Positions 23,298-54,970 of a stretch of DNA of 64,000 bases are shown piece after piece (position 1 is the stretch's first letter; every line of letters begins with the position of its first letter). The stretch comes from an uncultured Bacillota bacterium (GTDB lineage Bacteria > Bacillota_I > Bacilli_A > RFN20 > CAG-288). The stretch is from positions 27,066 to 91,065 of the forward strand of contig CASFYT010000016.1 in the NCBI GenBank assembly GCA_949299015.1. The letters are read 5' to 3'. Made by a program: the position numbers and the translations under genes. The notes below the pieces were generated by a model. The model did not search any database, was not told where the DNA came from, and saw nothing but the letters and a program-made list of their open reading frames with translations.

Positions 23298-24683
23298 TTA
23301 GGCGATTTCCTTCTGATAGGCCCGCTCCGCGCGGAAAAGCTTCGTGCTCAGGCGGTCAATCTTGTCCTTGATTTCCTCGACATAGCGGCGGCTGATGTCG
23401 GCCAAGGCCTCCTCGACCTTCTGTCCCGCGTCGAGGATTGCCTTGTTCTGCTTCCGGATGAGGGCCAGGTCCTTCTCCAGGACCTCCAGAGGCTTGTCGA
23501 GATAGGTCGTCTTCAGCTCCTCGAATTCCTTGTGGAAGGCATCGAACGCCAATTCCTTGGTCGTCTTGTCCTTCTCTCTCAGCGTCAGTTCCGCAAAGCG
23601 GGTGGTCAAGGAGACGATCATGTTGAGGAAGGTCATCAGGAAGGCCGGACGGACGACGTACATGTCCGGATAGTCGGGAACCCGGAAGATGGGGATGTCG
23701 TTGGGCTTGTCCAATTCCAGGTTGGAGACCAGGACCGCGTACTTGCACTTCTTCTTCCTCCGGTTGCTGTCGAGCTGCGGATAGTAGTCGCTGTTGCTCT
23801 TGCGGTTGACCGAATCCGGATTCTCGTCCTTCATGTCCAGGCAGATGCTCGTCAGGAGTTCCTGCTCTTCCTTCTTTTCGGAAGCGTAGATGGAGAAGAG
23901 GAAGTCCGCCTTGCTGCCATGGCTTTCCGTCCCTTCCCTGACGACGGCATTGTCCTTGGTCCAACGGCAGTTCTGGAAGCCGTTCTGCATGTAGGAACGG
24001 ACTTCGCCATCGCACCACTGCTCCAGGTTCTCGCCGATCCTCTTGACATTCAAGGCGGCCTTGGCGTTCTTCAGCTGGGCGTTCTCGTTCTTCAGGCTCT
24101 CCAGCTGGTCGCGGAAATCCTGCGTGAGCTTCTCCTTCTCCTTGGCGAACTCGTTCTCCTTCTCCAGGGAAGTCTTCTCCCGAAGCGCGTCCTTCTCCTG
24201 CTGGAAGCGTTCCTCATCCTGCTTCTGCCGTTCGATCAGCTGCTGAATCCTGCTTTCCTTTTCGTCCAGCTGCTTCTGGTAGCTGATCTGAGCCTGGAGC
24301 CTTTCGTTCTTGAGATTGGCTTCTTGGGCATCTTGGAGGGACTGAAGCTTTGTTCTTGTCTCTTGATAATCTTTTTCTTTCTTCTCAAGTCGATCCGAAA
24401 TCTGCTGGATATCCTGCCGCTTCTTTTCTTCCCATTCTTGCTTCGACTTTTCGAGTCGCTTGAGAATTTCCGCTTCGTTCTTTCCTTGAAGCTCTCGTTC
24501 CTTCTGGGCGACGGCCTCCCGAATCCTCTTCTCCGTCTCCTGGTTCAGGGCCGTCTCCAAAAGATGCTGGATATGGGCAAGATCCACATTGCTGATCTGA
24601 TCGATGCGGATGACGTCGCCCTTCTTGGCGTCCTGCTCGAGCACGAGCGTATTCTTGTCCCGGACGATGACCTTGATTTCCAT
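23298..24683 (-). CDS. Coiled-coil protein, DUF2130-like
   Basis: About 200 aa of heptad-rich K/E/Q sequence, then a C-terminal block GSKADFLFSIY...ICLDMKDE...KKCKYAVLVSNLELD...MYVVRPAFLMTFLN. From memory this matches the DUF2130 family. Confidence 0.5.
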   Translation of the reverse strand: MEIKVIVRDKNTLVLEQDAKKGDVIRIDQISNVDLAHIQHLLETALNQETEKRIREAVAQKERELQGKNEAEILKRLEKSKQEWEEKKRQDIQQISDRLEKKEKDYQETRTKLQSLQDAQEANLKNERLQAQISYQKQLDEKESRIQQLIERQKQDEERFQQEKDALREKTSLEKENEFAKEKEKLTQDFRDQLESLKNENAQLKNAKAALNVKRIGENLEQWCDGEVRSYMQNGFQNCRWTKDNAVVREGTESHGSKADFLFSIYASEKKEEQELLTSICLDMKDENPDSVNRKSNSDYYPQLDSNRRKKKCKYAVLVSNLELDKPNDIPIFRVPDYPDMYVVRPAFLMTFLNMIVSLTTRFAELTLREKDKTTKELAFDAFHKEFEELKTTYLDKPLEVLEKDLALIRKQNKAILDAGQKVEEALADISRRYVEEIKDKIDRLSTKLFRAERAYQKEIA

Positions 24684-24737: not shown

Positions 24738-27329
24738 CTATCTTCCCAAAATCTCCTCGATGCTCTTTCGCAGGTCCTCGCGGTCGACGTCAACGACAAG
24801 GTCGTTGCTTTCAATCGTCCGGACCATCCGCTCGTTCTTCCGCTCCAGGCGCTCTATGATGCGACGATCAATCGAGCCGCCGCGGCTTGCCGCCGATTCC
24901 GTGATCGCGAAGAAGTAGTGGGTCCTCGTTCCTTCGGGGAGACCGACGCGATGGATGCGGTCCTTCGATTGCAGCAGATAGGTCAGGTTGAATCCGTACT
25001 CGAGATAGACGGCCTCGTGACAGGAGCGATGCAGAGAGACAGACTCCGCCAAGGTATTGGGATTGGTGACAAGGACCATGCACTCCCCGTCCCGGAACAG
25101 GCGGATCTTCCGGACTCTGTCCTCTTCGCTGTCGGCTCCCGTGATCGAGAGGGCGGAAATCCCACGCTCTCTCAGAGAGGAGACGACCTTTGCGATGGTA
25201 TCCAGAAATAGGCACCAGAGAAGGACCTTCCGCCCCTTCTTCGCCTCGCCCTCGACGAACTCCAAGGCACGAATCGTCTTGGAGGAAAGCGGGTGCTCCT
25301 TGGCATACCGAAGGCTCTGCGGGGAGAGACGGATATCGTCGACGGGAAAGGGCTGGTCGTCGAAGGCCTCTTTCCAGAGGAAGGGATCGACTCTCTGGGA
25401 CAGGAGGGAAAGGTTGGAGGACGCCTGGATCAGGCGGACGAAGGCCAGAAGCGGGTTCCTTGCCTGCTTCCATATCTCTTCGAAGATCCTCCGCTGCCCT
25501 TCGTCCGGATCGACGGCAAGCGTCGCCAGGTCGTCCTTCTCGGCAGGAGGAATGCCCAACTCCTTCTTGGTGACGCGGACGAAGGTCGGATAGAGGCGCT
25601 CGCGGACCTGACGGGCGAAGAGCTCGTCCGTATCGGCAGAGGAGAGATTTCCCGCCAAGAGCCGGCTGAGCATCTCCGGGTCGTTCGCGTACAGGATTTC
25701 CAGCGTGTTCTTCATGTCCAGGAAGGAATTGGGAAGCGGCGTCCCCGTCAGGGCAAGACGGAACTTGGGACTGGGATATCCCGAGACCAGCTTCTTGATC
25801 CAGGAGGCGCGGACGCCTTCCGTGCCCTTGATGCGATGGATTTCATCGAAGACCAGGAGGGTCTTGTCGGAGAGAAGGCTATGGACCTCCTCTGTCTTCT
25901 CCTCGCTGTTGAAGAACTCATAGTTGAAGAGACAAACGTCGAATCTCTGCCTCTTCAGGACGAGACGGTCCTCGAAAGGGCATTGGGACACGTCGTAGAA
26001 GGAAAGAACCCCCTTCCCAAAGAGCTTCTCTCCTTCTTCCCTCCAGGCCAGGAAGGCGTTGAGCGGAGCAAAGACGAGCAGGGAATCGGCCTGCCCCGTC
26101 GCACGAAGATAGGCGTAGAGGCCGTAGGCGATATAGGTCTTTCCCGATCCCGGGACCGAATAGTCGGCGGAACAAAGAAGGCGGTAGTGAAAATAGGCCG
26201 CCCGCATCTGGAACTCCTTCAACGGAAGAAGAAGGGAACGGGAGACGACTTCCGAGAAGCGGTCGTAGTCCTCCTTCCAGAGATCGATGTCCTCCCACTT
26301 CTTGATCTTAAGCGCCAGCTTCAGGCGTTGCTCCATTAGTTGATCGGTCTCCGCAAGAAGCTTCGCGAGGCGGTCGGAAAGACGAAACGGAACGTTCCAG
26401 CGCTCCAAGGCCTTCTGAACCTGCCGCACCAGCGCCGGGTTGAAATTTGAAAAACGATAGCCCCAATCCCCCTCCCTTTCCCCCTTCCCGTTGGAGAGGA
26501 AACCTGAAAGGGCCCGAACACAGGAGGGATGATGGGCGAAGTCGTCGACAAGAAGCATCCGCTCCCGGACCTCGGCGTCGAGATAGACCACCTGCAGCAG
26601 TTCCTGGGCCCTTCGAAATTCCCGAAAGTCCTGCTTCGAGGAGAAGCTCCTTCCACGATCGAAGGAGCGCAGGACCTGGAAGAGGCGATCCGTCGGTGCG
26701 AAGACGCGGACATAGGGGCTATAGGTTCCGTTCCAGATCTGTTCGAACCGCTGTCGAAGATCTTCCACGCGCAAGGGATCCGTCTTCTCCAGGTAGACGT
26801 CGGTCAGCTCCGAATTGTACCGAGACCCCAACAGCGTCTCGTTGGCCGATCCCTGAAATCCGACAGAGTATCCTTCCTCATCCGTAAAGATCCCGAACTT
26901 CTGATGGAAAAGCGATTCCGCCTTGTCGTTCATCATGAAGGCAATCTTGACTTCTGCAATTCCATGTCGAATCAAATATCCAAGATTGGCAATTTCATAA
27001 TCATTTTTCAATTCATCGAAATGAATTTCAATATCCTTTGCAATCTTTTCTTCTCTATCACGATAGGATTCCAGAATTCCCTCCATCTCTTCCGGCGCGA
27101 TCTTGTTGGAGAAGACGAATCGGATCCGGCCGCCGTTTGCGACGAAGGCGTGGAGTCCTTCGGCGTAGCCGGCCAAGGAAAGAGAGGAGAAATAGGCCGA
27201 CGCCCGGTCGTATCGCTGGGAGAGGGCAAGGCAGGGAAGGAAGAGCTCCTGGTTGATGTCGTGCCCCGGGACCGCAGGATCGTAGGAGATTCGGCAGGTG
27301 AAGGAAGAAAGGCCCTTTCCTTCGCTCAT
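24738..27329 (-). CDS. PLD-family (HKD) nuclease domain fused to an SNF2/SF2 helicase
   Basis: N-terminus FHQKFGIFTDEEGYSVGFQGSANET (HKD motif). Helicase motifs SVPGSGKTYIAYG (Walker A), LLVFDEIHRIKG (DExH) and LTGTPLPNS. C-terminal helicase domain ...LVTNPNTLAESVSLH...LLQSKDRIHRVGL. ATGA overlap with the upstream gene. Confidence 0.85.
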   Translation of the reverse strand: MSEGKGLSSFTCRISYDPAVPGHDINQELFLPCLALSQRYDRASAYFSSLSLAGYAEGLHAFVANGGRIRFVFSNKIAPEEMEGILESYRDREEKIAKDIEIHFDELKNDYEIANLGYLIRHGIAEVKIAFMMNDKAESLFHQKFGIFTDEEGYSVGFQGSANETLLGSRYNSELTDVYLEKTDPLRVEDLRQRFEQIWNGTYSPYVRVFAPTDRLFQVLRSFDRGRSFSSKQDFREFRRAQELLQVVYLDAEVRERMLLVDDFAHHPSCVRALSGFLSNGKGEREGDWGYRFSNFNPALVRQVQKALERWNVPFRLSDRLAKLLAETDQLMEQRLKLALKIKKWEDIDLWKEDYDRFSEVVSRSLLLPLKEFQMRAAYFHYRLLCSADYSVPGSGKTYIAYGLYAYLRATGQADSLLVFAPLNAFLAWREEGEKLFGKGVLSFYDVSQCPFEDRLVLKRQRFDVCLFNYEFFNSEEKTEEVHSLLSDKTLLVFDEIHRIKGTEGVRASWIKKLVSGYPSPKFRLALTGTPLPNSFLDMKNTLEILYANDPEMLSRLLAGNLSSADTDELFARQVRERLYPTFVRVTKKELGIPPAEKDDLATLAVDPDEGQRRIFEEIWKQARNPLLAFVRLIQASSNLSLLSQRVDPFLWKEAFDDQPFPVDDIRLSPQSLRYAKEHPLSSKTIRALEFVEGEAKKGRKVLLWCLFLDTIAKVVSSLRERGISALSITGADSEEDRVRKIRLFRDGECMVLVTNPNTLAESVSLHRSCHEAVYLEYGFNLTYLLQSKDRIHRVGLPEGTRTHYFFAITESAASRGGSIDRRIIERLERKNERMVRTIESNDLVVDVDREDLRKSIEEILGR

Positions 27330-28552
27330 TCCGGCAGGTATCCCTTGATCTTCGCCAACTCCTTCTCGATCTGTCCCAGGAGAATCTTCAGCTCCTTTCG
27401 ATTCTCCGTCGTCGTCTCCCGGATGTCCTGCCACATGATCTTCTGGCAACGTCCGAGGGCCTCCTTCATCAACGCCACCGGCTTGTTCTGGCTCGTCTCC
27501 TTCTTGGACTCGACGATGTTGTCCGAAAGGACTTCCTCGAGCTCGTTCTTCAGCACGTTCCGCTCGGCGCCGTCCTTTCCGTTGAGAAGACCTTCGCTCT
27601 CCTTGGTAAGCAGATTTCCCGTCCTCTGCAGGTAATCCTTCTCCTGAAGCTGCCTTTCCAGGCTTTCGTAGCGGGATGGGTTCTTCGCTGCCATCTCCAA
27701 GACCTCGCGGATCTGTCGGGTCTTGTCCCCCGACAGGTTGCTCAACATCGCAAAGAAATAGTCTCGATGGTTTATCCAGAAGTCATCCGTCATCTTTTTC
27801 TTCCGGTTGGCGATTTCGACGATCGGGCCATGGAGTTCTTCTTCCTTCAGGAGATAGAAGGCCTGCGGAGTCCCGCGCCATTCGAGATATTCCAACATCA
27901 GCTCGACCTGGGACTTCATCTGGGCCATCTCTTTGTCCGTCGCCCCTGAGTAGGTCTGGTACGTCCGCTCGTCGAGCGTCTTCGTCTCCTTGTTGAGGCA
28001 GAGCTTGTAGAAGGAGACGTTCTTGTCGATGGGAGAATAGTCCCTCTTCTCGTCCCTGTTCTCCTGCAGCTCCAGCTCAAGGATTGCGATTGCACGCCAG
28101 GCATCCTTGCCTTCGGGAACGTCCAGGACACAGGCCTCGAAGGTGCTGAACCGCTGTTCTCCTTTCTTCCGATAAAGTTCTCGGAGAACCGTGAAACGAC
28201 GGTTGCCATCGATGATCCTTCCGTCGGCAAGGACGACTCCGGGAACCATCTGTCCCTTCTCTTGGACATCTCGCAGGGTCTTCTCGTAGGAATCCTTCTT
28301 CTCCGCTTCCTTCACAGCCTTTCCGATGAGGTCGTTGTACCGCTCGACATCGTCCTGCTTCAAGGCGAGGATCTCCTGGCGCGAATGTCCTTCGCGAACC
28401 CGTTCCTCGTCGATGAACGTGGCGATGCGGCCGTTCCGGTCGTTGTAGTAGAGTCGATCGAGGGGAATCTCATAGGTCTCCCTGTTCTCGACCTTGTCGT
28501 TGAGACGGAGCCTCATCTCCCCCTTCCTCTTCAGTTCCTTGACGTCGATCAT
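27326..28552 (-). CDS. ParB/sulfiredoxin-fold N-terminal domain protein with a helical C-terminal region
   Basis: YEIPLDRLYYNDRNGRI ... VVLADGRIIDGNRRFTVLREL (ParB-type DGxRR motif). The remainder has no motif I recognise. ATGA overlaps at both ends. Confidence 0.55.
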   Translation of the reverse strand: MIDVKELKRKGEMRLRLNDKVENRETYEIPLDRLYYNDRNGRIATFIDEERVREGHSRQEILALKQDDVERYNDLIGKAVKEAEKKDSYEKTLRDVQEKGQMVPGVVLADGRIIDGNRRFTVLRELYRKKGEQRFSTFEACVLDVPEGKDAWRAIAILELELQENRDEKRDYSPIDKNVSFYKLCLNKETKTLDERTYQTYSGATDKEMAQMKSQVELMLEYLEWRGTPQAFYLLKEEELHGPIVEIANRKKKMTDDFWINHRDYFFAMLSNLSGDKTRQIREVLEMAAKNPSRYESLERQLQEKDYLQRTGNLLTKESEGLLNGKDGAERNVLKNELEEVLSDNIVESKKETSQNKPVALMKEALGRCQKIMWQDIRETTTENRKELKILLGQIEKELAKIKGYLPE

Positions 28553-29250
28553 GACTGAAACACCTCCTTTTCCGTGGGCGATAGGTTTTCCAGAACGATT
28601 CGGGCCAGATACTCTTTGTCCAGCCAGAAGGCCTGCTTCGTCGCCGTCGTCCTTCCTGTCCTCTTGTCGGGAACGGGCAGGCTCAGGACATCGTCCTTGT
28701 TCCGGGCGTGGGGACGGATGTGGGCGACTTGTCTCCCTTCGATGCGGAAGCAGGGGACGAAGCCCTTCTCCGAATAGACGTCTCCCTCCAGGAGCTTCCG
28801 TCGAAAGCCTTCGTAGAGATCCCGTACCGCGAGGAGATCTTCCTTCGGAAGGCGATAGAAGAAATGCGTCAGAATAATCGGCTCCTTGTTCGAAAAGGTC
28901 ACGAAGAACCAGAAATTCTGTGAAAAGTCCTCCCGGATCGGCGAGGAATCCCAGCTCTCCTGAGAGAGACGAAGGAAGTCGAAGGAGGAGAAGGACATGC
29001 TTTCCTTAGGTCTTCCCTCCTTCCCGAGGTGAATGGTCTTCAAGGAAAGGTCGGCATAGCTTTGAAGAAAGGAAAGTCCCTCCATCGGCAGGTTCTGCCG
29101 AAGATAGGTCAGAATCGCAAGATAGCTCTTCGACTTCGAGCTCGAGGGCACGCCCGTCAGCGCCTGGATTTCCCGGATGCTCTTGCCACGGATCTGTTCG
29201 GCCGCCTGAATCAAGGCCGAAAACTGACGAAGAAAGGAAATGTCGATCAT
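28549..29250 (-). CDS. MutH/Sau3AI-family endonuclease-like protein (single domain, 233 aa)
   Basis: By-eye alignment to E. coli MutH: [21 protein letters not shown] ~ [42 protein letters not shown] ~ [33 protein letters not shown] ~ [21 protein letters not shown] ~ RGFYLKKNF. Start is ATG at 29250, overlapping the methyltransferase stop. Confidence 0.55.
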   Translation of the reverse strand: [233 protein letters not shown]

Positions 29251-30127
29251 TCGTCCTCCTCCTTCAGGATTTCGAGAAGCAAGTCTCCCATCCTTTCGAT
29301 GATTCCACAGACCAGGGCATTGCCCATCATGAAGTATCGAGCCGAAGTGGGCATTCCCGTATCCGTCCATCCATCGGGAAAGCCATTCAGCCGCTCGCAT
29401 TCCACCGGCATCAGAAAACGGAGCTTCCCCGTTTCGGGATCGGGAAGGATGTGCGTCGAACGATTGACGGACCCTTCGCTCGTCAACATGGTTCGTCCCG
29501 GAAGATCAAGGGAATCGTAAGGGTTCATTCCGCCCTCGCAGTAGTAATAGGAGAGGCCCGTCGAGGATTGCCTCTCCACCTTCTTCTTCCCTCTCAGATA
29601 GGAGAACTGCTCCTGTTGCTTCGCAGTCAAATAGAAACGTGGATCGTGGCAAGGAAGGACGATACGAGAGAGAGGAGTCGCCTTTTCGGTCAGAGGCGAA
29701 ACCTTGATCGTATAGACTTTCCCATCATGCATCCAGCCCGCATTCTCGAAATGAGCATGAAAACCATCCGAGAAATCGGCAAGATCCAAGAAAGAATCCG
29801 TCAGGGAGATTTCCTGAAGGGGCAAAAGGATGGCCTTGACAGGAAAGGCCTTCGCGAAAATTCCTTCCTTTGTTATAACATCCTCTGGATGATATTTAAG
29901 AATGCTCTTTGCATATTTTGTTTTGTTTCGATAAATGAAAATAAACGTCCTTCTCCTTCTTTGTGCAAATCCATATTCAGCAGCATTCAATACTCTCCAA
30001 AGTGCAGAATACCCCAAATCATGGAGACAGCGAAGGATGATTCCGAAGTCCCTTCCCCGCTGTCCTTTAGGAGAAAGAATCAACCGATTGACGTTTTCCA
30101 GTATTCCGTAAGCAGGATGCTTAAGGA
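29247..30127 (-). CDS. C5-cytosine DNA methyltransferase, 3' portion (motifs VI-X), disconnected from its 5' portion in this orientation
   Basis: From LKHPAYGILENVNRL (ENV), through AEYGFAQRRRRTFIFI (QxRxR), to RYFMMGNALVCGIIERMG (GNxV). The 73 residues upstream in track ORF 29247..30329 are antisense of the inverted segment. Confidence 0.85.
30109..30127. repeat. Left inverted repeat of the invertible segment
   Basis: TAAGCAGGATGCTTAAGGA is the exact reverse complement of 30508..30526. Confidence 0.95.
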
Positions 30128-30140
30128 TTATAATTGAGCC

Positions 30141-30527
30141 ATGAAACCAACAGCTATAGAACTTTTTGCCGGCGTCGGCGGATTCCGTGTTGGACTCAAT
30201 AAAGTGCGTCTTGTCGAGGGACAGACGATAGAAGAAAAACGATTTGAATTTTTGTACGCCAATCAGTGGGAACCCGGGAAAAAACGTCAATATGCTTTTG
30301 AATGTTATAAAAAGCGGTTTGGAAATCAAACCGAAAGATTAGAGAACGTCGATATTTCTCTAGTCGATAAAAAGACGATTCCGGACTTCAACGTCTTGAC
30401 TGCAGGGTTCCCCTGTCAAGACTATTCCGTTGCACGAAAAACGCACTCAAAAACAGGCATAGAAGGCAAAAAAGGCGTCCTCTGGTGGCAACTTAAGGAA
30501 CTTCTATTCCTTAAGCATCCTGCTTAA
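30141..30527 (+). CDS. C5-cytosine DNA methyltransferase, 5' portion (motifs I-V), on the opposite strand from the rest of the gene
   Basis: MKPTAIELFAGVGGFRVGL (FxGxG), LTAGFPCQDYSVARK (PCQ), GKKGVLWWQLKELLFLKHPA, then a TAA created at the repeat junction. TATAAT at 30129..30134 lies 6 nt before the ATG, with no SD. Confidence 0.85.
   Translation: MKPTAIELFAGVGGFRVGLNKVRLVEGQTIEEKRFEFLYANQWEPGKKRQYAFECYKKRFGNQTERLENVDISLVDKKTIPDFNVLTAGFPCQDYSVARKTHSKTGIEGKKGVLWWQLKELLFLKHPA
30508..30526. repeat. Right inverted repeat of the invertible segment
   Basis: TCCTTAAGCATCCTGCTTA is the exact reverse complement of 30109..30127. Confidence 0.95.
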
Positions 30528-30596
30528 TAACTTTTTTCTCTCTCTTCATTCACAGCCCGCAAGCGGGAGGCCAATAGATTGTGAGGGAGGAATATT

Positions 30597-31523
30597 GTGT
30601 CATATCGCTTTATGGACGTTGCATACGCCTGGCTGGAGGAACGAAAGGATTTCGTCAAGCCTTCCACATATGCCCTTTATCGTTGGGATGTCGAAAAGGT
30701 CTTCTCTCATTACTTTCAAACCATCGACGGCTCTTTCGACGATCAGGTCCAGCGCTTCGCCTTATCCCAGTGGAAGCAGGGGCTGAAGCCCAAGACCATC
30801 AAGGATCGAATCTCCCTGATACGGGCGATCTATGAATTCGGCTCGCAAAAGGGATGGTGGCCTTTCCACAGACTCCACGTCCAATATCCGACGTTCGAAG
30901 AAAGGAATACGCTGTCTGTCCTGGAAATCCAAGAGCAGAAAAGTCTTCTTCGCTATCTCGACGAACACCTCAACTTCCACAATCTCGGCCTGATGATCTG
31001 CCTGGAGGAAGGACTCCGGATCGGCGAAATCTGTTCCTTGCGTTTCATGGACATCGATGCCGAAAGGGGCGTCGTCCACGTCCGCCATACCATTCAGCGA
31101 ATCTATTCCTACGAGCGACACCGCTCCGAATTGCATATCGATCGTCCCAAGACCTCGAATTCCGAGAGGGAAATTCCCATGACGAAGTCCCTGCAGAGAA
31201 AGGTCGCCTCCCTTCAGCATCTCTCGAAGCCGGACCATTACGTCCTCACGAATGGTGAAAAGCCCCTCGAGCCTCGTGCCTTTCGCGCTTATTTCTCCCG
31301 CCTCCTCAAACGCCTGCAGCTCTCTCCCATCCGCTTTCACGGCCTCCGGCACAGCTTTGCGACCCGATGCGTCGAGGCGGGATGCGACTACAAGACGCTG
31401 AGCGCAATCCTAGGGCATGCCAACATCGGAACCACGCTCAACCTCTACGTCCATCCCGATCATGAACAGAAGATGAAATGCATCAACCAAATGATGGAAA
31501 GACTGGGCAGGAAGGAATCCTGA
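30597..31523 (+). CDS. Tyrosine site-specific recombinase (integrase/invertase family)
   Basis: GTG start after a GGGAGG RBS. Catalytic signature EEGLRIGEI (R), HGLRHSFATR (HxxR), LGHANIGTT (H) and LNLYVH (Y). Confidence 0.9.
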   Translation: MSYRFMDVAYAWLEERKDFVKPSTYALYRWDVEKVFSHYFQTIDGSFDDQVQRFALSQWKQGLKPKTIKDRISLIRAIYEFGSQKGWWPFHRLHVQYPTFEERNTLSVLEIQEQKSLLRYLDEHLNFHNLGLMICLEEGLRIGEICSLRFMDIDAERGVVHVRHTIQRIYSYERHRSELHIDRPKTSNSEREIPMTKSLQRKVASLQHLSKPDHYVLTNGEKPLEPRAFRAYFSRLLKRLQLSPIRFHGLRHSFATRCVEAGCDYKTLSAILGHANIGTTLNLYVHPDHEQKMKCINQMMERLGRKES

Positions 31524-31702: not shown

Positions 31703-33646
<1,944 letters not shown>

Positions 33647-53191: not shown

Positions 53192-53268
53192 TGGTGGGTC
53201 TTAGTAGGCTTGAACTACCGACCTTGCGCTTATCAAGCGCACGCTCTAACCAACTGAGCTAAAGACCC
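53192..53268 (-). tRNA. tRNA-Ile (anticodon GAT)
   Basis: Reverse complement GGGTCTTTAGCTCAGTTGGTTAGAGCGTGCGCTTGATAAGCGCAAGGTCGGTAGTTCAAGCCTACTAAGACCCACCA folds as a cloverleaf with anticodon loop TTGATAA and an encoded CCA. Confidence 0.93.
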
Positions 53269-53340
53269 ATTTCAAGCAAGGGACATTTTAAGCCTTGCCC
53301 TTCCTTCTGTCAACTCATTTCCGGAGAAACGAGCGGAAAC

Positions 53341-53369
53341 TTGCATCTAGAGGGGACAAAGAATACAAT
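53341..53369 (+). promoter_or_regulatory. Promoter of ferredoxin copy 1
   Basis: TTGCAT-17 nt-TACAAT. The leader TACAATACTCTTGTTCCTGGAGGT is nearly identical to that of copy 2. Confidence 0.55.
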
Positions 53370-53395
53370 ACTCTTGTTCCTGGAGGTATTGAACC

Positions 53396-53584
53396 ATGGC
53401 TAAGAAAGTTGAGATCAACAGCGACGCCTGCATCGGCTGCGGCCTTTGCAACGCGACTCTTGCTTCGGTCTTCGGAATGACCGACGAAGGCAAGGCGGAA
53501 GTCATCGCCCAGCCCGCCGAGGGCGACGATGTCGAGACGGTCGCCGCCAGCTGCCCTGTCGGCGCCATCACGGTTTCGGAGTAA
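53396..53584 (+). CDS. Small single-cluster ferredoxin
   Basis: MAKKVEINSDACIGCGLCNA...ASCPVGAITVSE (CxxCxxC...CP). 62 aa. Confidence 0.85.
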   Translation: MAKKVEINSDACIGCGLCNATLASVFGMTDEGKAEVIAQPAEGDDVETVAASCPVGAITVSE

Positions 53585-53597
53585 GCCTGAGACGATG

Positions 53598-53623
53598 CCG
53601 GCCTCCTCGGAGGCCGGTTTTTC
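53598..53623 (+). terminator. Rho-independent terminator
   Basis: CCGGCCTCC..GGAGGCCGG followed by TTTTT. Confidence 0.7.
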
Positions 53624-53632
53624 GTTTCCCGC

Positions 53633-53660
53633 TTGACACCTCCCTGAATGGGCTTACAAT
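53633..53660 (+). promoter_or_regulatory. Promoter of ferredoxin copy 2
   Basis: TTGACA-16 nt-TACAAT, followed by the leader TACAATATTCTTGTTCCTGGAGGT. Confidence 0.6.
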
Positions 53661-53682
53661 ATTCTTGTTCCTGGAGGTTCGT

Positions 53683-53877
53683 ATGGCAAAAAAGATTCGC
53701 ATCGATTCCGAAGCCTGCATCGGCTGCGGAGCCTGCGCCGGGATGAGGCCGGACGTCTTCGCCCTGGAAGACCAGGGAGAGGGCATGAGGGCCCACGTCA
53801 TTGCGCAGCCGGAAGACGAGCACGGCATCGAGGAGTGCATCCTCTCCTGCCCCGTCGGCGCCATCTCTCACGAATGA
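53683..53877 (+). CDS. Small single-cluster ferredoxin (paralog)
   Basis: MAKKIRIDSEACIGCGACAG...LSCPVGAISHE. 64 aa. Confidence 0.85.
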   Translation: MAKKIRIDSEACIGCGACAGMRPDVFALEDQGEGMRAHVIAQPEDEHGIEECILSCPVGAISHE

Positions 53878-53884
53878 GCTTCTC

Positions 53885-53910
53885 GGCTCCCGAAGAGGGA
53901 GCCTTTTTTT
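53885..53910. terminator. Rho-independent terminator (ferredoxin and rluB converge here)
   Basis: GGCTCCC-GAAGA-GGGAGCC followed by TTTTTTT. Confidence 0.75.
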
Positions 53911-53955
53911 CTTGGCCATTCGTCTCCGACGCCATCGGAGCGTCCGAATCCCGGC

Positions 53956-54750
53956 TCAAAGCGACGAGGAATCCTCATTGGGACTCGGTTCGAACGGTTT
54001 TTTCTTATGGATCCGGTTTTCCTGGCAGATCCTCCTCAGGTCGTCGACTTCCTCGGCGCTGAGCAGGCGGTAGCCGCCAAGAGGGACGCGGCCAAGGACA
54101 AGGTTTCCGATGCGGACGCGGTTGAGCGTCAGGACCTGATGGCCGAGGGTCTGCATCATCCGACGGACTTCCCTCTTCTTTCCCTCGTGCAGGACGACGG
54201 AAAAGACGACGCTGTCTTCCTCTTCCTGGAGGACCTCCATCCGGGCTGGGGCGGCGCGGTATCCTTCCCGGACGATGTAGAGTCCGGCCTCGACCTTGGC
54301 GACCTCATCCCCCTGAAGGCCGCCCAGGACCTTGACGACGTATTCCTTTTCCGGCGAGGTGGACGGATGCATGATCAGGTTCGAGAATTCTCCGTCGTCC
54401 GTCAGGAGGAGGAGTCCGGAGGAATCCATGTCGAGGCGACCGACGGGAAAGAGCCTCCCGTATTCCTTGGGGATCAGGTCGAGAACGGTCTTCCTCCCCT
54501 GGGGATCGTTCAAGGTGCAGACATAGCCGCGCGGCTTGTTCAACAGCAAGTAGCGATGTTCGTCCCCCTTTCCGTGGACAGGGATCCCGTCGACTTCGAT
54601 GGCGTCGACAGGCGTGCAGGAAAAGCCCGTCGGAACGACCTCGCCGTTGACCTTCACCCGCCCCTGGAGGACGAGCTCCTCCGCCTTTCTCCTCGAGCAA
54701 TATCCGAGGGAGGAGAGGATCTTCTGTATTCTTTGTTTTTCCATTTCCAT
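53956..54750 (-). CDS. rluB: Pseudouridine synthase, RsuA/RluB family
   Basis: S4 domain RIQKILSSLGYCSRRKAEELVLQGRVKVNG, catalytic GRLDMDSSGLLLLTDDG, and KEYVVKV. The ATG at 54750 avoids overlap with the tRNA. Confidence 0.85.
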   Translation of the reverse strand: MEMEKQRIQKILSSLGYCSRRKAEELVLQGRVKVNGEVVPTGFSCTPVDAIEVDGIPVHGKGDEHRYLLLNKPRGYVCTLNDPQGRKTVLDLIPKEYGRLFPVGRLDMDSSGLLLLTDDGEFSNLIMHPSTSPEKEYVVKVLGGLQGDEVAKVEAGLYIVREGYRAAPARMEVLQEEEDSVVFSVVLHEGKKREVRRMMQTLGHQVLTLNRVRIGNLVLGRVPLGGYRLLSAEEVDDLRRICQENRIHKKKPFEPSPNEDSSSL

Positions 54751-54813
54751 TATTGTAGCCAAAAGGGAGCGTTCTTGCAGAAAAAAAGCCCGTCGCCGGG
54801 CCGCGAAGCTCAA

Positions 54814-54890
54814 TGGTGGATCAAGCAGGACTTGAACCTGCACCGCCGCGGTTATGGGCCGCGTACTCTAACCAATTGAGCTATTGATCC
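54814..54890 (-). tRNA. tRNA with CAT anticodon, probably tRNA-Ile2 (lysidine) rather than Met
   Basis: Reverse complement GGATCAATAGCTCAATTGGTTAGAGTACGCGGCCCATAACCGCGGCGGTGCAGGTTCAAGTCCTGCTTGATCCACCA. G1-C72 is paired, so it is not an initiator. It resembles Bacillus tRNA-Ile2. The anticodon loop reads CCCATAA (C at position 33 by my fold). Confidence 0.8.
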
Positions 54891-54894
54891 ATTT

Positions 54895-54970
54895 TGGTGG
54901 CTGTGGGGAGGGTCGAACTCTCGACATACCGGGTATGAACCGGCTGCTCTACCAACTGAGCTACACAGCC
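54895..54970 (-). tRNA. tRNA-Met (elongator, anticodon CAT)
   Basis: Reverse complement GGCTGTGTAGCTCAGTTGGTAGAGCAGCCGGTTCATACCCGGTATGTCGAGAGTTCGACCCTCCCCACAGCCACCA. Anticodon loop TTCATAC, as in the Bacillus elongator Met. One A-C mismatch in the T stem. Confidence 0.85.

Follow-up and report, generated by a model that had tools for sequence, protein, structure and literature searches.

Organization of the locus

The 64-kb stretch of DNA analysed here (64,000 nucleotides, hereafter the window; positions 27,066 to 91,065 of contig CASFYT010000016.1 from an uncultured Bacillota bacterium) contains a C5-cytosine methyltransferase gene in two oppositely oriented pieces, next to a gene for a tyrosine recombinase. 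The 5' piece lies between two short inverted repeats, and the arrangement was analysed as a candidate invertible switch that would hold the complete gene in one orientation (ON) and the split gene in the other (OFF). The features of the switch region are the following (positions in the window):

30141..30527, plus strand: 5' fragment of the methyltransferase gene, 128 codons, stop codon TAA, with motifs I (FAGVGG) and IV (GFPCQDYS)
29247..30108, minus strand: 3' fragment of the methyltransferase gene, 287 codons, without a start codon of its own, with motifs VI (ENV), VIII (QRRRR) and X (GNALV)
30109..30127: left inverted repeat (IR-L), TAAGCAGGATGCTTAAGGA, with the dyad core AAGCA-GGA-TGCTT
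30508..30526: right inverted repeat (IR-R), within coding sequence (codons F-L-K-H-P-A), ending at the stop codon of the 5' fragment
30109..30526: putative invertible segment, 418 bp, OFF in the window; a flip in silico restores an open reading frame (ORF) of 415 amino acids
30129..30134, plus strand: -10-like box (TATAAT) within the segment, 6 nt ahead of the ATG; candidate promoter
30597..31523, plus strand: tyrosine recombinase, 308 amino acids, GTG start (alternative ATG at 30612), PF00589 (E 1.5e-28)

The 5' fragment ends with ...FLKHPA, followed by its stop codon. On the opposite strand, the ORF at 29247-30329 starts with about 73 residues that are antisense to the plus-strand fragment, and ENV, QRRRR and GNALV appear only after these residues. 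By direct reading of the sequence, the repeats are exact reverse complements of each other over 19 bp, and the pair is placed exactly where the methyltransferase reading frame breaks. The GTG of the recombinase gene is found 70 nt past the stop codon of the N-terminal fragment and is preceded by a ribosome-binding site (GGGAGG). Alignment with Tn1549 Int, the closest solved relative, showed that the catalytic residues R141, H248-x-x-R251, H274 and Y284 are all present. An earlier reading of the same DNA (the original prediction) had pointed to the plus-strand ORF with motifs I and IV, to the minus-strand ORF with its antisense start, to exact inverted repeats at the frame break, to the TATAAT ahead of the ATG and to a tyrosine recombinase with its catalytic signature 70 bp to the right; all of these were recovered when the sequence was read again.

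Inward from the 19 bp, the repeat can be extended to 25 nt with 2 mismatches (92% complementarity). An 18-mer of the repeat occurs at only 2 sites in the window when up to 3 mismatches are allowed (0.02 expected), and at least 2 sites were found in 0 of 100 shuffled sequences. An integrated mobile element was considered and rejected, since the repeats are inverted and bracket only the 5' end of the gene. The G+C content is 43% in the segment and 42-44% in the stretch that includes the 5' half of the 3' fragment; because these values are below the 58% of the window, the switch region is suggested to be acquired DNA. A palindrome, CTTAAGGAA-N6-TTCCTTAAG, is present at 30492-30515, overlapping the inner end of IR-R, and provides a third, incomplete copy of the repeat's inner part. 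Of the related loci described below, lineage 2 retains the palindrome with arms of 7 nt, and lineage 3 does not have it.

Restoration of the methyltransferase by inversion in silico

Reverse-complementing 30109-30526 yielded a single minus-strand ORF of 415 amino acids (128 + 287 codons) in which ...LFLKHPA is joined in frame to YGILENV..., as had been predicted. The rejoined protein matched PF00145 over residues 5-403 (E 2.7e-53), the PADLOC Type II methyltransferase model from end to end, with residues 4-409 on positions 6-402 of 407 (E 6e-147), and TIGR00675 (E 5e-61). Its full-length homologues number more than 100; they are 54-61% identical and cover 96-100% of its length, and the protein is gaplessly collinear with intact homologues across the junction. 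Motifs I, IV, VI, VIII and X stand in their canonical order in one polypeptide only after the flip and not in the arrangement as present. In silico, the OFF state thus comprises a 128-residue fragment and a start-less 3' fragment, and the ON state a full-length methyltransferase. The enzyme is Sau3AI-like, and by analogy GATC would be the expected target motif. The junctions that would be specific for the ON state of the window, as predicted by the in-silico flip, are ...GTATTCCG-TAAGCAGGATGCTTAAGGA-ATAGAAGTTCCTTAAGTTGCC and ...CATGGCTCAATTATAA-TCCTTAAGCATCCTGCTTA-ATAACTTTTTTC.

The intact homologue P0001 (61% identity) is encoded by an ordinary gene with no repeat upstream, and a tblastn search of a plasmid collection returned intact homologues only, at identities of 50% or less. 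A Sau3AI-like C5 methyltransferase encoded by two collinear ORFs on the same strand was found in contigs L040-L043 (5001-6198, reached via P0265); the ORFs of 205 and 167 amino acids are separated by 76 nt, and a full-length MutH/Sau3AI protein of 461 amino acids is encoded close to them. The neighbouring genes look mobile-element-like (a replication-organiser protein, an IstB-like ATPase, an SNF2 helicase and NOV_C). The product of the 205-residue ORF was found in 221 index blocks, and the collinear two-ORF form is therefore widespread.

Conservation of the module in three lineages

Related loci were retrieved by exact-protein look-ups and by a scan with the repeat 18-mer, which gave 11 further contigs. 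The total set of 12 contigs represents 10 distinct strain-level sequences and falls into three lineages. Lineage 1 consists of the window, L001 and L002 (= L003), which are 99.6-99.9% identical to the window. Relative to the window, the recombinase is 65% and the two methyltransferase parts are 82% and 72% identical in lineage 2 (L004-L007 and L012, the latter a GTDB genome); the corresponding values for lineage 3 (L037-L039) are 50%, 71% and 60%. The layout of 3' fragment, reversed 5' fragment and recombinase gene is common to all 12 contigs. A flip between the local repeats restores an ORF of 413-415 amino acids in all three lineages, and in each of them the junction, KHPA followed by [YF][GC], aligns without a gap to intact homologues. 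The comparison with related genomes that had been proposed along with the original prediction thus showed the module, with its repeats and both gene halves conserved, to recur in two further lineages.

These loci also bear on the question of whether the segment has been placed in the wrong orientation during assembly. Assemblers can be confused by short inverted repeats, but the same layout is found in at least 11 sample or assembly accessions from differing pipelines (ENA scaffolds, Logan contigs and a GTDB genome), three lineages of differing sequence agree, and typical reads and k-mers exceed 19 bp, the length of the repeat. Runs that contain these organisms include ERR10610463, ERR10610505, ERR10610632 and SRR9113723, together with the reads behind ERZ16268067/088/131, ERZ17292903, ERZ8902149 and ERZ27234725. 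Since independent assemblies agree, an assembly error was rejected and is hardly credible.

Lineages 1 and 2 have diverged to saturation at synonymous sites (synonymous divergence, dS, of 1.1-2.5). For the ratio of nonsynonymous to synonymous divergence (dN/dS), the 5' fragment has a value of 0.108, the recombinase gene one of 0.110 and the 3' fragment one of 0.121. Not a single stop codon interrupts the fragments in any lineage, and there are no frameshifts in the 10 strains. A fixed ancient inversion that killed the gene and left a decaying restriction-modification remnant would agree with the single orientation ever seen, and one strain of lineage 2 may have a damaged helicase gene (see below). 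Purifying selection on both halves at dS values above 1 nevertheless makes a permanently broken gene unlikely; moreover, the recombinase and downstream genes are intact, and the repeats, the most strongly conserved DNA of the region, change in concert. Such a remnant is accordingly given very little weight.

The conservation of the repeats is apparent from a 571-nt alignment of the switch region, in which lineages 1 and 2 are 78% identical. The longest invariant run (37 nt, 30102-30138) covers IR-L and the TATAAT, and second place is shared by two runs of 21 nt, one over IR-R (30509-30529) and the other immediately inside it. Exact repeats of 18-19 nt are present at the equivalent place in lineages 2 and 3, and the repeat core AAGCAGGATGCTT is also kept in lineage 3. 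The lineage-3 repeat, AAGCAGGATGCTTTGTGAT, is 19 nt long and 100% complementary, and it retains the dyad core of IR-L. Compared to lineages 1 and 2, three inner positions of the lineage-3 repeat differ, and they do so in both arms; in the coding arm, Phe-Leu is changed to Ile-Thr. Mirrored changes of the arms would be expected from selection for, or homogenisation by, recombination between them.

Purifying selection on both fragments would also be seen if two polypeptides, made from divergent genes in the orientation as found, assembled into an active enzyme, the repeats being a relic. Two-subunit and fragment-complementing C5 methyltransferases are known, M.AquI being encoded in two pieces like the present enzyme; collinear two-ORF relatives exist, and upstream of the junction the minus-strand frame of lineages 1 and 2 continues for about 75 codons without a stop. 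The pieces of M.AquI, however, are co-oriented, each with a start codon, and are split between motifs VIII and IX, whereas the present pieces are divergent and the 3' piece is start-less. Here the break separates motif IV from motif VI; it falls within the catalytic fold and not in the variable region of known split enzymes. Possible starts of the 3' fragment in lineages 1 and 2 are limited to TTG codons at non-conserved positions, which would add about 70 antisense residues. In lineage 3, a stop codon closes the frame 20 codons ahead of ENV (motif VI), and the codons in between include neither ATG nor GTG nor TTG; the 3' fragment is thus without a usable start, and its conservation requires rejoining to the 5' part. 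A naturally split enzyme would also leave the perfect, co-evolving repeats and the conserved adjacent recombinase unexplained, and is considered improbable.

Relationships of the recombinase

The recombinase gene adjoins the segment in all three lineages. The nearest relatives of the recombinase outside these lineages (P0124-P0126) are 50% identical over the full length, and their genes adjoin hsdS genes of Type I systems; in one case the locus comprises a full set of hsdR, hsdM and hsdS, a partial hsdS in inverted orientation, and inverted repeats of 65-69 nt. Because these relatives flank invertible DNA segments (invertons) of Type I hsdS genes, the recombinase belongs to the class that inverts hsdS. 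For PsrA, a member of this class, a 15-bp repeat plus adjacent bases suffice (PMC7096588). The locus in the window is without hsdS, hsdM and hsdR and has a single repeat pair.

Promoter-like box and expression signals

The sequence GATTATAATT directly inside IR-L is kept in all three lineages. The spacer between TATAAT and ATG is variable, both in sequence and in length (6 or 8 nt). Because the TATAAT is conserved while the spacer is not, it fits a putative -10 box that would travel with the segment and give rise to a leaderless or near-leaderless mRNA. The original prediction had stated that a Shine-Dalgarno sequence is absent; this does not strictly hold for the window, where the repeat contains AAGGA at its inner end, 13 nt ahead of the ATG. 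The motif is absent from lineage 3. Promoter and terminator scans returned nothing above chance. A hairpin that resembles a terminator, with a run of T, is located antisense inside the OFF segment (30333-30315, minus strand) and could block leftward read-through; neither lineage 2 nor lineage 3 has kept it, and the count of such sites is at chance level.

Inversion model and orientation of the segment

Overall, the 418-bp segment is probably a two-state invertible switch that is flipped by the adjacent recombinase at the 19-bp repeats. The recombinase would recombine the inverted repeats, and the segment, which comprises the promoter-like box, the ATG and the initial 128 codons of the methyltransferase, would flip between two states. 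In the ON state, these codons would be joined in frame (...KHPA to YG...) to the remaining 287 and would head a minus-strand operon for the methyltransferase, a MutH/Sau3AI-like protein, a protein of 408 amino acids and a PLD-SNF2 helicase, the genes being linked by ATGA overlaps. In the OFF state, the promoter and the 5' coding part would face the recombinase gene, leaving no full-length methyltransferase and an operon without its head. We infer that the TATAAT serves as operon promoter and that the downstream genes are silent in OFF. Of the inversion phase variation that the original prediction had proposed, the arrangement, the conservation in three lineages, the co-evolving repeats and the restored frame are borne out; the ON orientation was absent from the contigs and from the protein database. 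The leaderless transcript, the joint silencing of M and R and the feedback on the recombinase, which the original prediction had also suggested, are putative.

Several observations weigh against a two-state switch. The segment is OFF in 12 out of 12 contigs (10 strains, 3 lineages), and a set of 5.8 billion protein clusters includes neither a full-length nor a junction-spanning ON protein of these lineages. In these clusters, the best match of the whole rejoined protein is 61% identical and that of a 119-residue junction-spanning query 70%, with none from these lineages; the rejoined lineage-3 protein is at best 63% identical to the matches retrieved. No contig breaks at the repeats, which would have hinted at mixed orientations (the end of L039 is 26 nt outside IR-L, and those of L045 and L046 are at other places). 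The promoter scan called no sigma-70-type promoter, and there is no good -35 sequence in either orientation of the segment. Judged by identity, the lineage-3 recombinase shows no greater similarity to the recombinases of lineages 1 and 2 than to the hsdS-associated ones. Switching a Type II system OFF is, moreover, expected to be costly, as loss of a Type II methylase leads to post-segregational killing.

The repeat 18-mer was also used to search for other copies. In genome contigs only L012 (OFF) was found, the remaining matches being single and due to chance; metagenome contigs gave single chance matches, with no methyltransferase or recombinase gene nearby. Consensus assemblies cannot reveal a minority orientation. 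Because only the OFF form is present in contigs and protein database, we infer inversion from the anatomy of the locus and its evolution. Natural populations appear to be predominantly OFF, in keeping with the cost that switching would be expected to have in a Type II system.

The single orientation could also mean that inversion is conditional or effectively one-way, and not stochastic in both directions, with the operon locked OFF in nearly all cells. Inversion would then arm the operon only on a trigger (stress, phage attack) or in a committed minority, and a return to OFF would leave an under-methylated chromosome open to attack by leftover restriction activity. The finding of OFF in every contig of three lineages, the lack of an ON protein in the database and the established post-segregational killing by Type II systems point in this direction. 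In addition, the TATAAT and the 5' fragment read in OFF toward the recombinase gene 70 nt downstream, and recombinase expression could be orientation-dependent. A recombinase made mainly in OFF would, however, let the ON state accumulate, which is the opposite of what is observed, and a heavily one-sided orientation is common among ordinary invertons too. We regard conditional or one-way inversion as rather unlikely. Also rather unlikely is the proposal that a Type II-like defence operon is physically disassembled in essentially every cell and is armed by a committed, possibly triggered inversion. If this were true, going from ON to OFF would be unsafe, methylation being lost faster than restriction, and the element would be a one-way bet-hedging or altruistic device and not an ordinary, reversible form of phase variation.

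Downstream genes and surroundings

The genes that would follow the methyltransferase in the operon, and the next gene on the same strand, are:

28549..29250, minus strand: MutH/Sau3AI-family protein, 233 amino acids, putative subunit for restriction or DNA sensing; start codon in ATGA overlap with the stop codon of the methyltransferase gene
27326..28552, minus strand: protein of 408 amino acids, no family assigned; ATGA overlaps with both neighbours
24738..27329, minus strand: PLD-domain and SNF2-type helicase, 863 amino acids, PbeA-like (Pfam ResIII, SNF2, Helicase_C and PLDc_2; PADLOC PbeA, E 4e-58)
23298..24683, minus strand: DUF2130 protein, 461 amino acids (PF09903, E 3e-37), 54 nt downstream of the helicase gene

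The 233-residue protein matched the NCBIfam Sau3AI model at positions 246-474 of 475 only (E 9e-26), gave matches in the PDB to the Sau3AI C-terminal domain (7xm0 and 2reu) and was recognized by PADLOC REase_II (E 1.6e-12). The similarity to MutH is weak, and the positions of MutH D70 and E77 are unmatched; in a pairwise alignment, a Ser is found opposite the catalytic Glu77. Residues that are invariant among four homologues of the protein include E83, S84, H177, R179, H181 and D195. The protein may be a DNA-sensing subunit and not a nuclease. The original prediction had spoken of an operon of M and R. A MutH/Sau3AI-like gene does adjoin the methyltransferase gene, but its product, a single domain, resembles only the non-catalytic C-terminal domain of Sau3AI (the allosteric or effector half), and the label may be too simple. 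Because of this partial match and the unmatched Asp and Glu positions of MutH, the name R is provisional, and a predicted nuclease activity uncertain.

Family-model searches gave no significant match for the 408-residue protein; its counterpart in lineage 2 has 53% amino acid identity, with a dN/dS of 0.17. The helicase gene, coupled to it by the ATGA overlap, is the last of the overlap-coupled block. The DUF2130 gene is syntenic in lineages 1 and 2 and may be part of the same island. In lineage 2, the contigs L004 and L005 are 99.7% identical; the helicase gene was not called in L004 (118-2715), where an antisense ORF of 475 amino acids was called, which suggests that the helicase gene of this strain may carry a frameshift or nonsense mutation. 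The context differs in lineage 3, with other flanking genes: the MutH-like gene is followed by one for a GmrSD-type (Type IV) enzyme (L037 2067-3917, L038 1989-3839) in place of those for the 408-residue protein and the PLD-SNF2 helicase. From this exchange of downstream genes, the conserved core of the module consists of the recombinase, the methyltransferase and the MutH-like protein.

Directly to the right of the recombinase gene, a protein of 647 amino acids is encoded (31703-33646, plus strand), which has a lipoprotein-type signal (...LLTSC) and long collagen-like GEQ/GPQ triplets (PF01391); the latter dominate the direct-repeat output of the window. Three tRNA genes are found at 53192-54970 (minus strand; Ile-GAT and two Met-CAT). 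Rfam and tRNA scans gave nothing near the switch locus and, besides these three tRNA genes, no Rfam family at threshold in the window.

Relation to known invertible systems

That restriction-modification can be phase-variable is textbook knowledge for Type I systems, through inversions of hsdS, and for Type III systems, through slippage at repeats. ON/OFF switching is usually deemed unsuitable for Type II systems, since a cell that loses the methylase while the nuclease persists is killed.

In a review of 2025, Type I and III systems are still the only ones given as phase-variable (PMC11868660). The Type I hsdS invertons (Streptococcus pneumoniae cod/ivr with PsrA, Bacteroides fragilis; PMC4948785, PMC7672463, PMC7096588) resemble the present locus in that a recombinase gene lies beside a restriction-modification gene, the inverted repeats are within coding sequence, short repeats are enough (15 bp for PsrA) and the recombinases are 50% identical to the present one. 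They differ in their target, which is hsdS and not a Type II-like C5 methyltransferase, and in shuffling target-recognition domains among several alleles, whereas here one repeat pair leaves the gene whole or split. The flipped piece here, unlike that of hsdS, holds the start codon and a putative promoter.

Recombinase-associated inversions that alter the coding sequence of a restriction-modification or defence methyltransferase have also been described for Type II IIG/IIL-like enzymes (Eco57I/DrmMI/PglX; Milman et al. 2023, PMC9881135), and some of these loci share PLD-SNF2 helicase neighbours with the present one. Those enzymes are N6-adenine methyltransferases whose 3' part is swapped with that of a promoterless pseudogene copy, which results in variant switching; the present locus has no second copy, and the 5' end of a C5 enzyme is merely reversed, giving ON/OFF. 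The word 'cytosine' is absent from that paper (PMC9881135). In intragenic or 'partial intergenic' invertons (Chanin et al., 10.1101/2023.03.11.532203), one repeat likewise lies in the gene and the other just upstream, and the flip truncates or restores the protein, as here. A survey of gut metagenomes reports inversions near methyltransferases of restriction-modification types I, II and III (PMC11741434). The available parts of these two sources describe no C5 methyltransferase example, and the present case, in contrast to theirs, is built on conservation in three lineages and not on reads.

Invertible promoters (Escherichia coli fimS, Bacteroides polysaccharide promoters, Clostridioides difficile cwpV/flgB; see also PMC11868660) are two-state, promoter-bearing elements with a nearby recombinase as well, and their populations are often heavily one-sided. 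Classical promoter switches flip non-coding DNA only, whereas here 128 codons are included, by which the OFF state physically splits the gene. The novelty that had been claimed for the locus is therefore narrower than first stated: inversions in Type II restriction-modification systems and within genes are already published (PMC9881135; 10.1101/2023.03.11.532203; PMC11741434), and the literature that could be searched yielded no C5 cytosine methyltransferase gene whose 5' end forms the invertible unit. What is probably new is the combination of a two-state, gene-splitting inverton with a Type II-like C5 methyltransferase operon and an hsdS-type recombinase.

The recombinase with its pair of 19-bp sites is a compact candidate genetic tool. 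Comparative genomics alone, through selection on both gene halves and co-evolving repeats, can flag switches that appear in one and the same state in every consensus assembly. If the two-state reading is true, the locus would be a clean, testable case of ON/OFF switching of a Type II-like system, conserved in three lineages. It raises the questions of how cells would survive the transitions, why populations are overwhelmingly OFF, and whether genome-wide 5-methylcytosine would switch with the element, as a cytosine 'phasevarion'.

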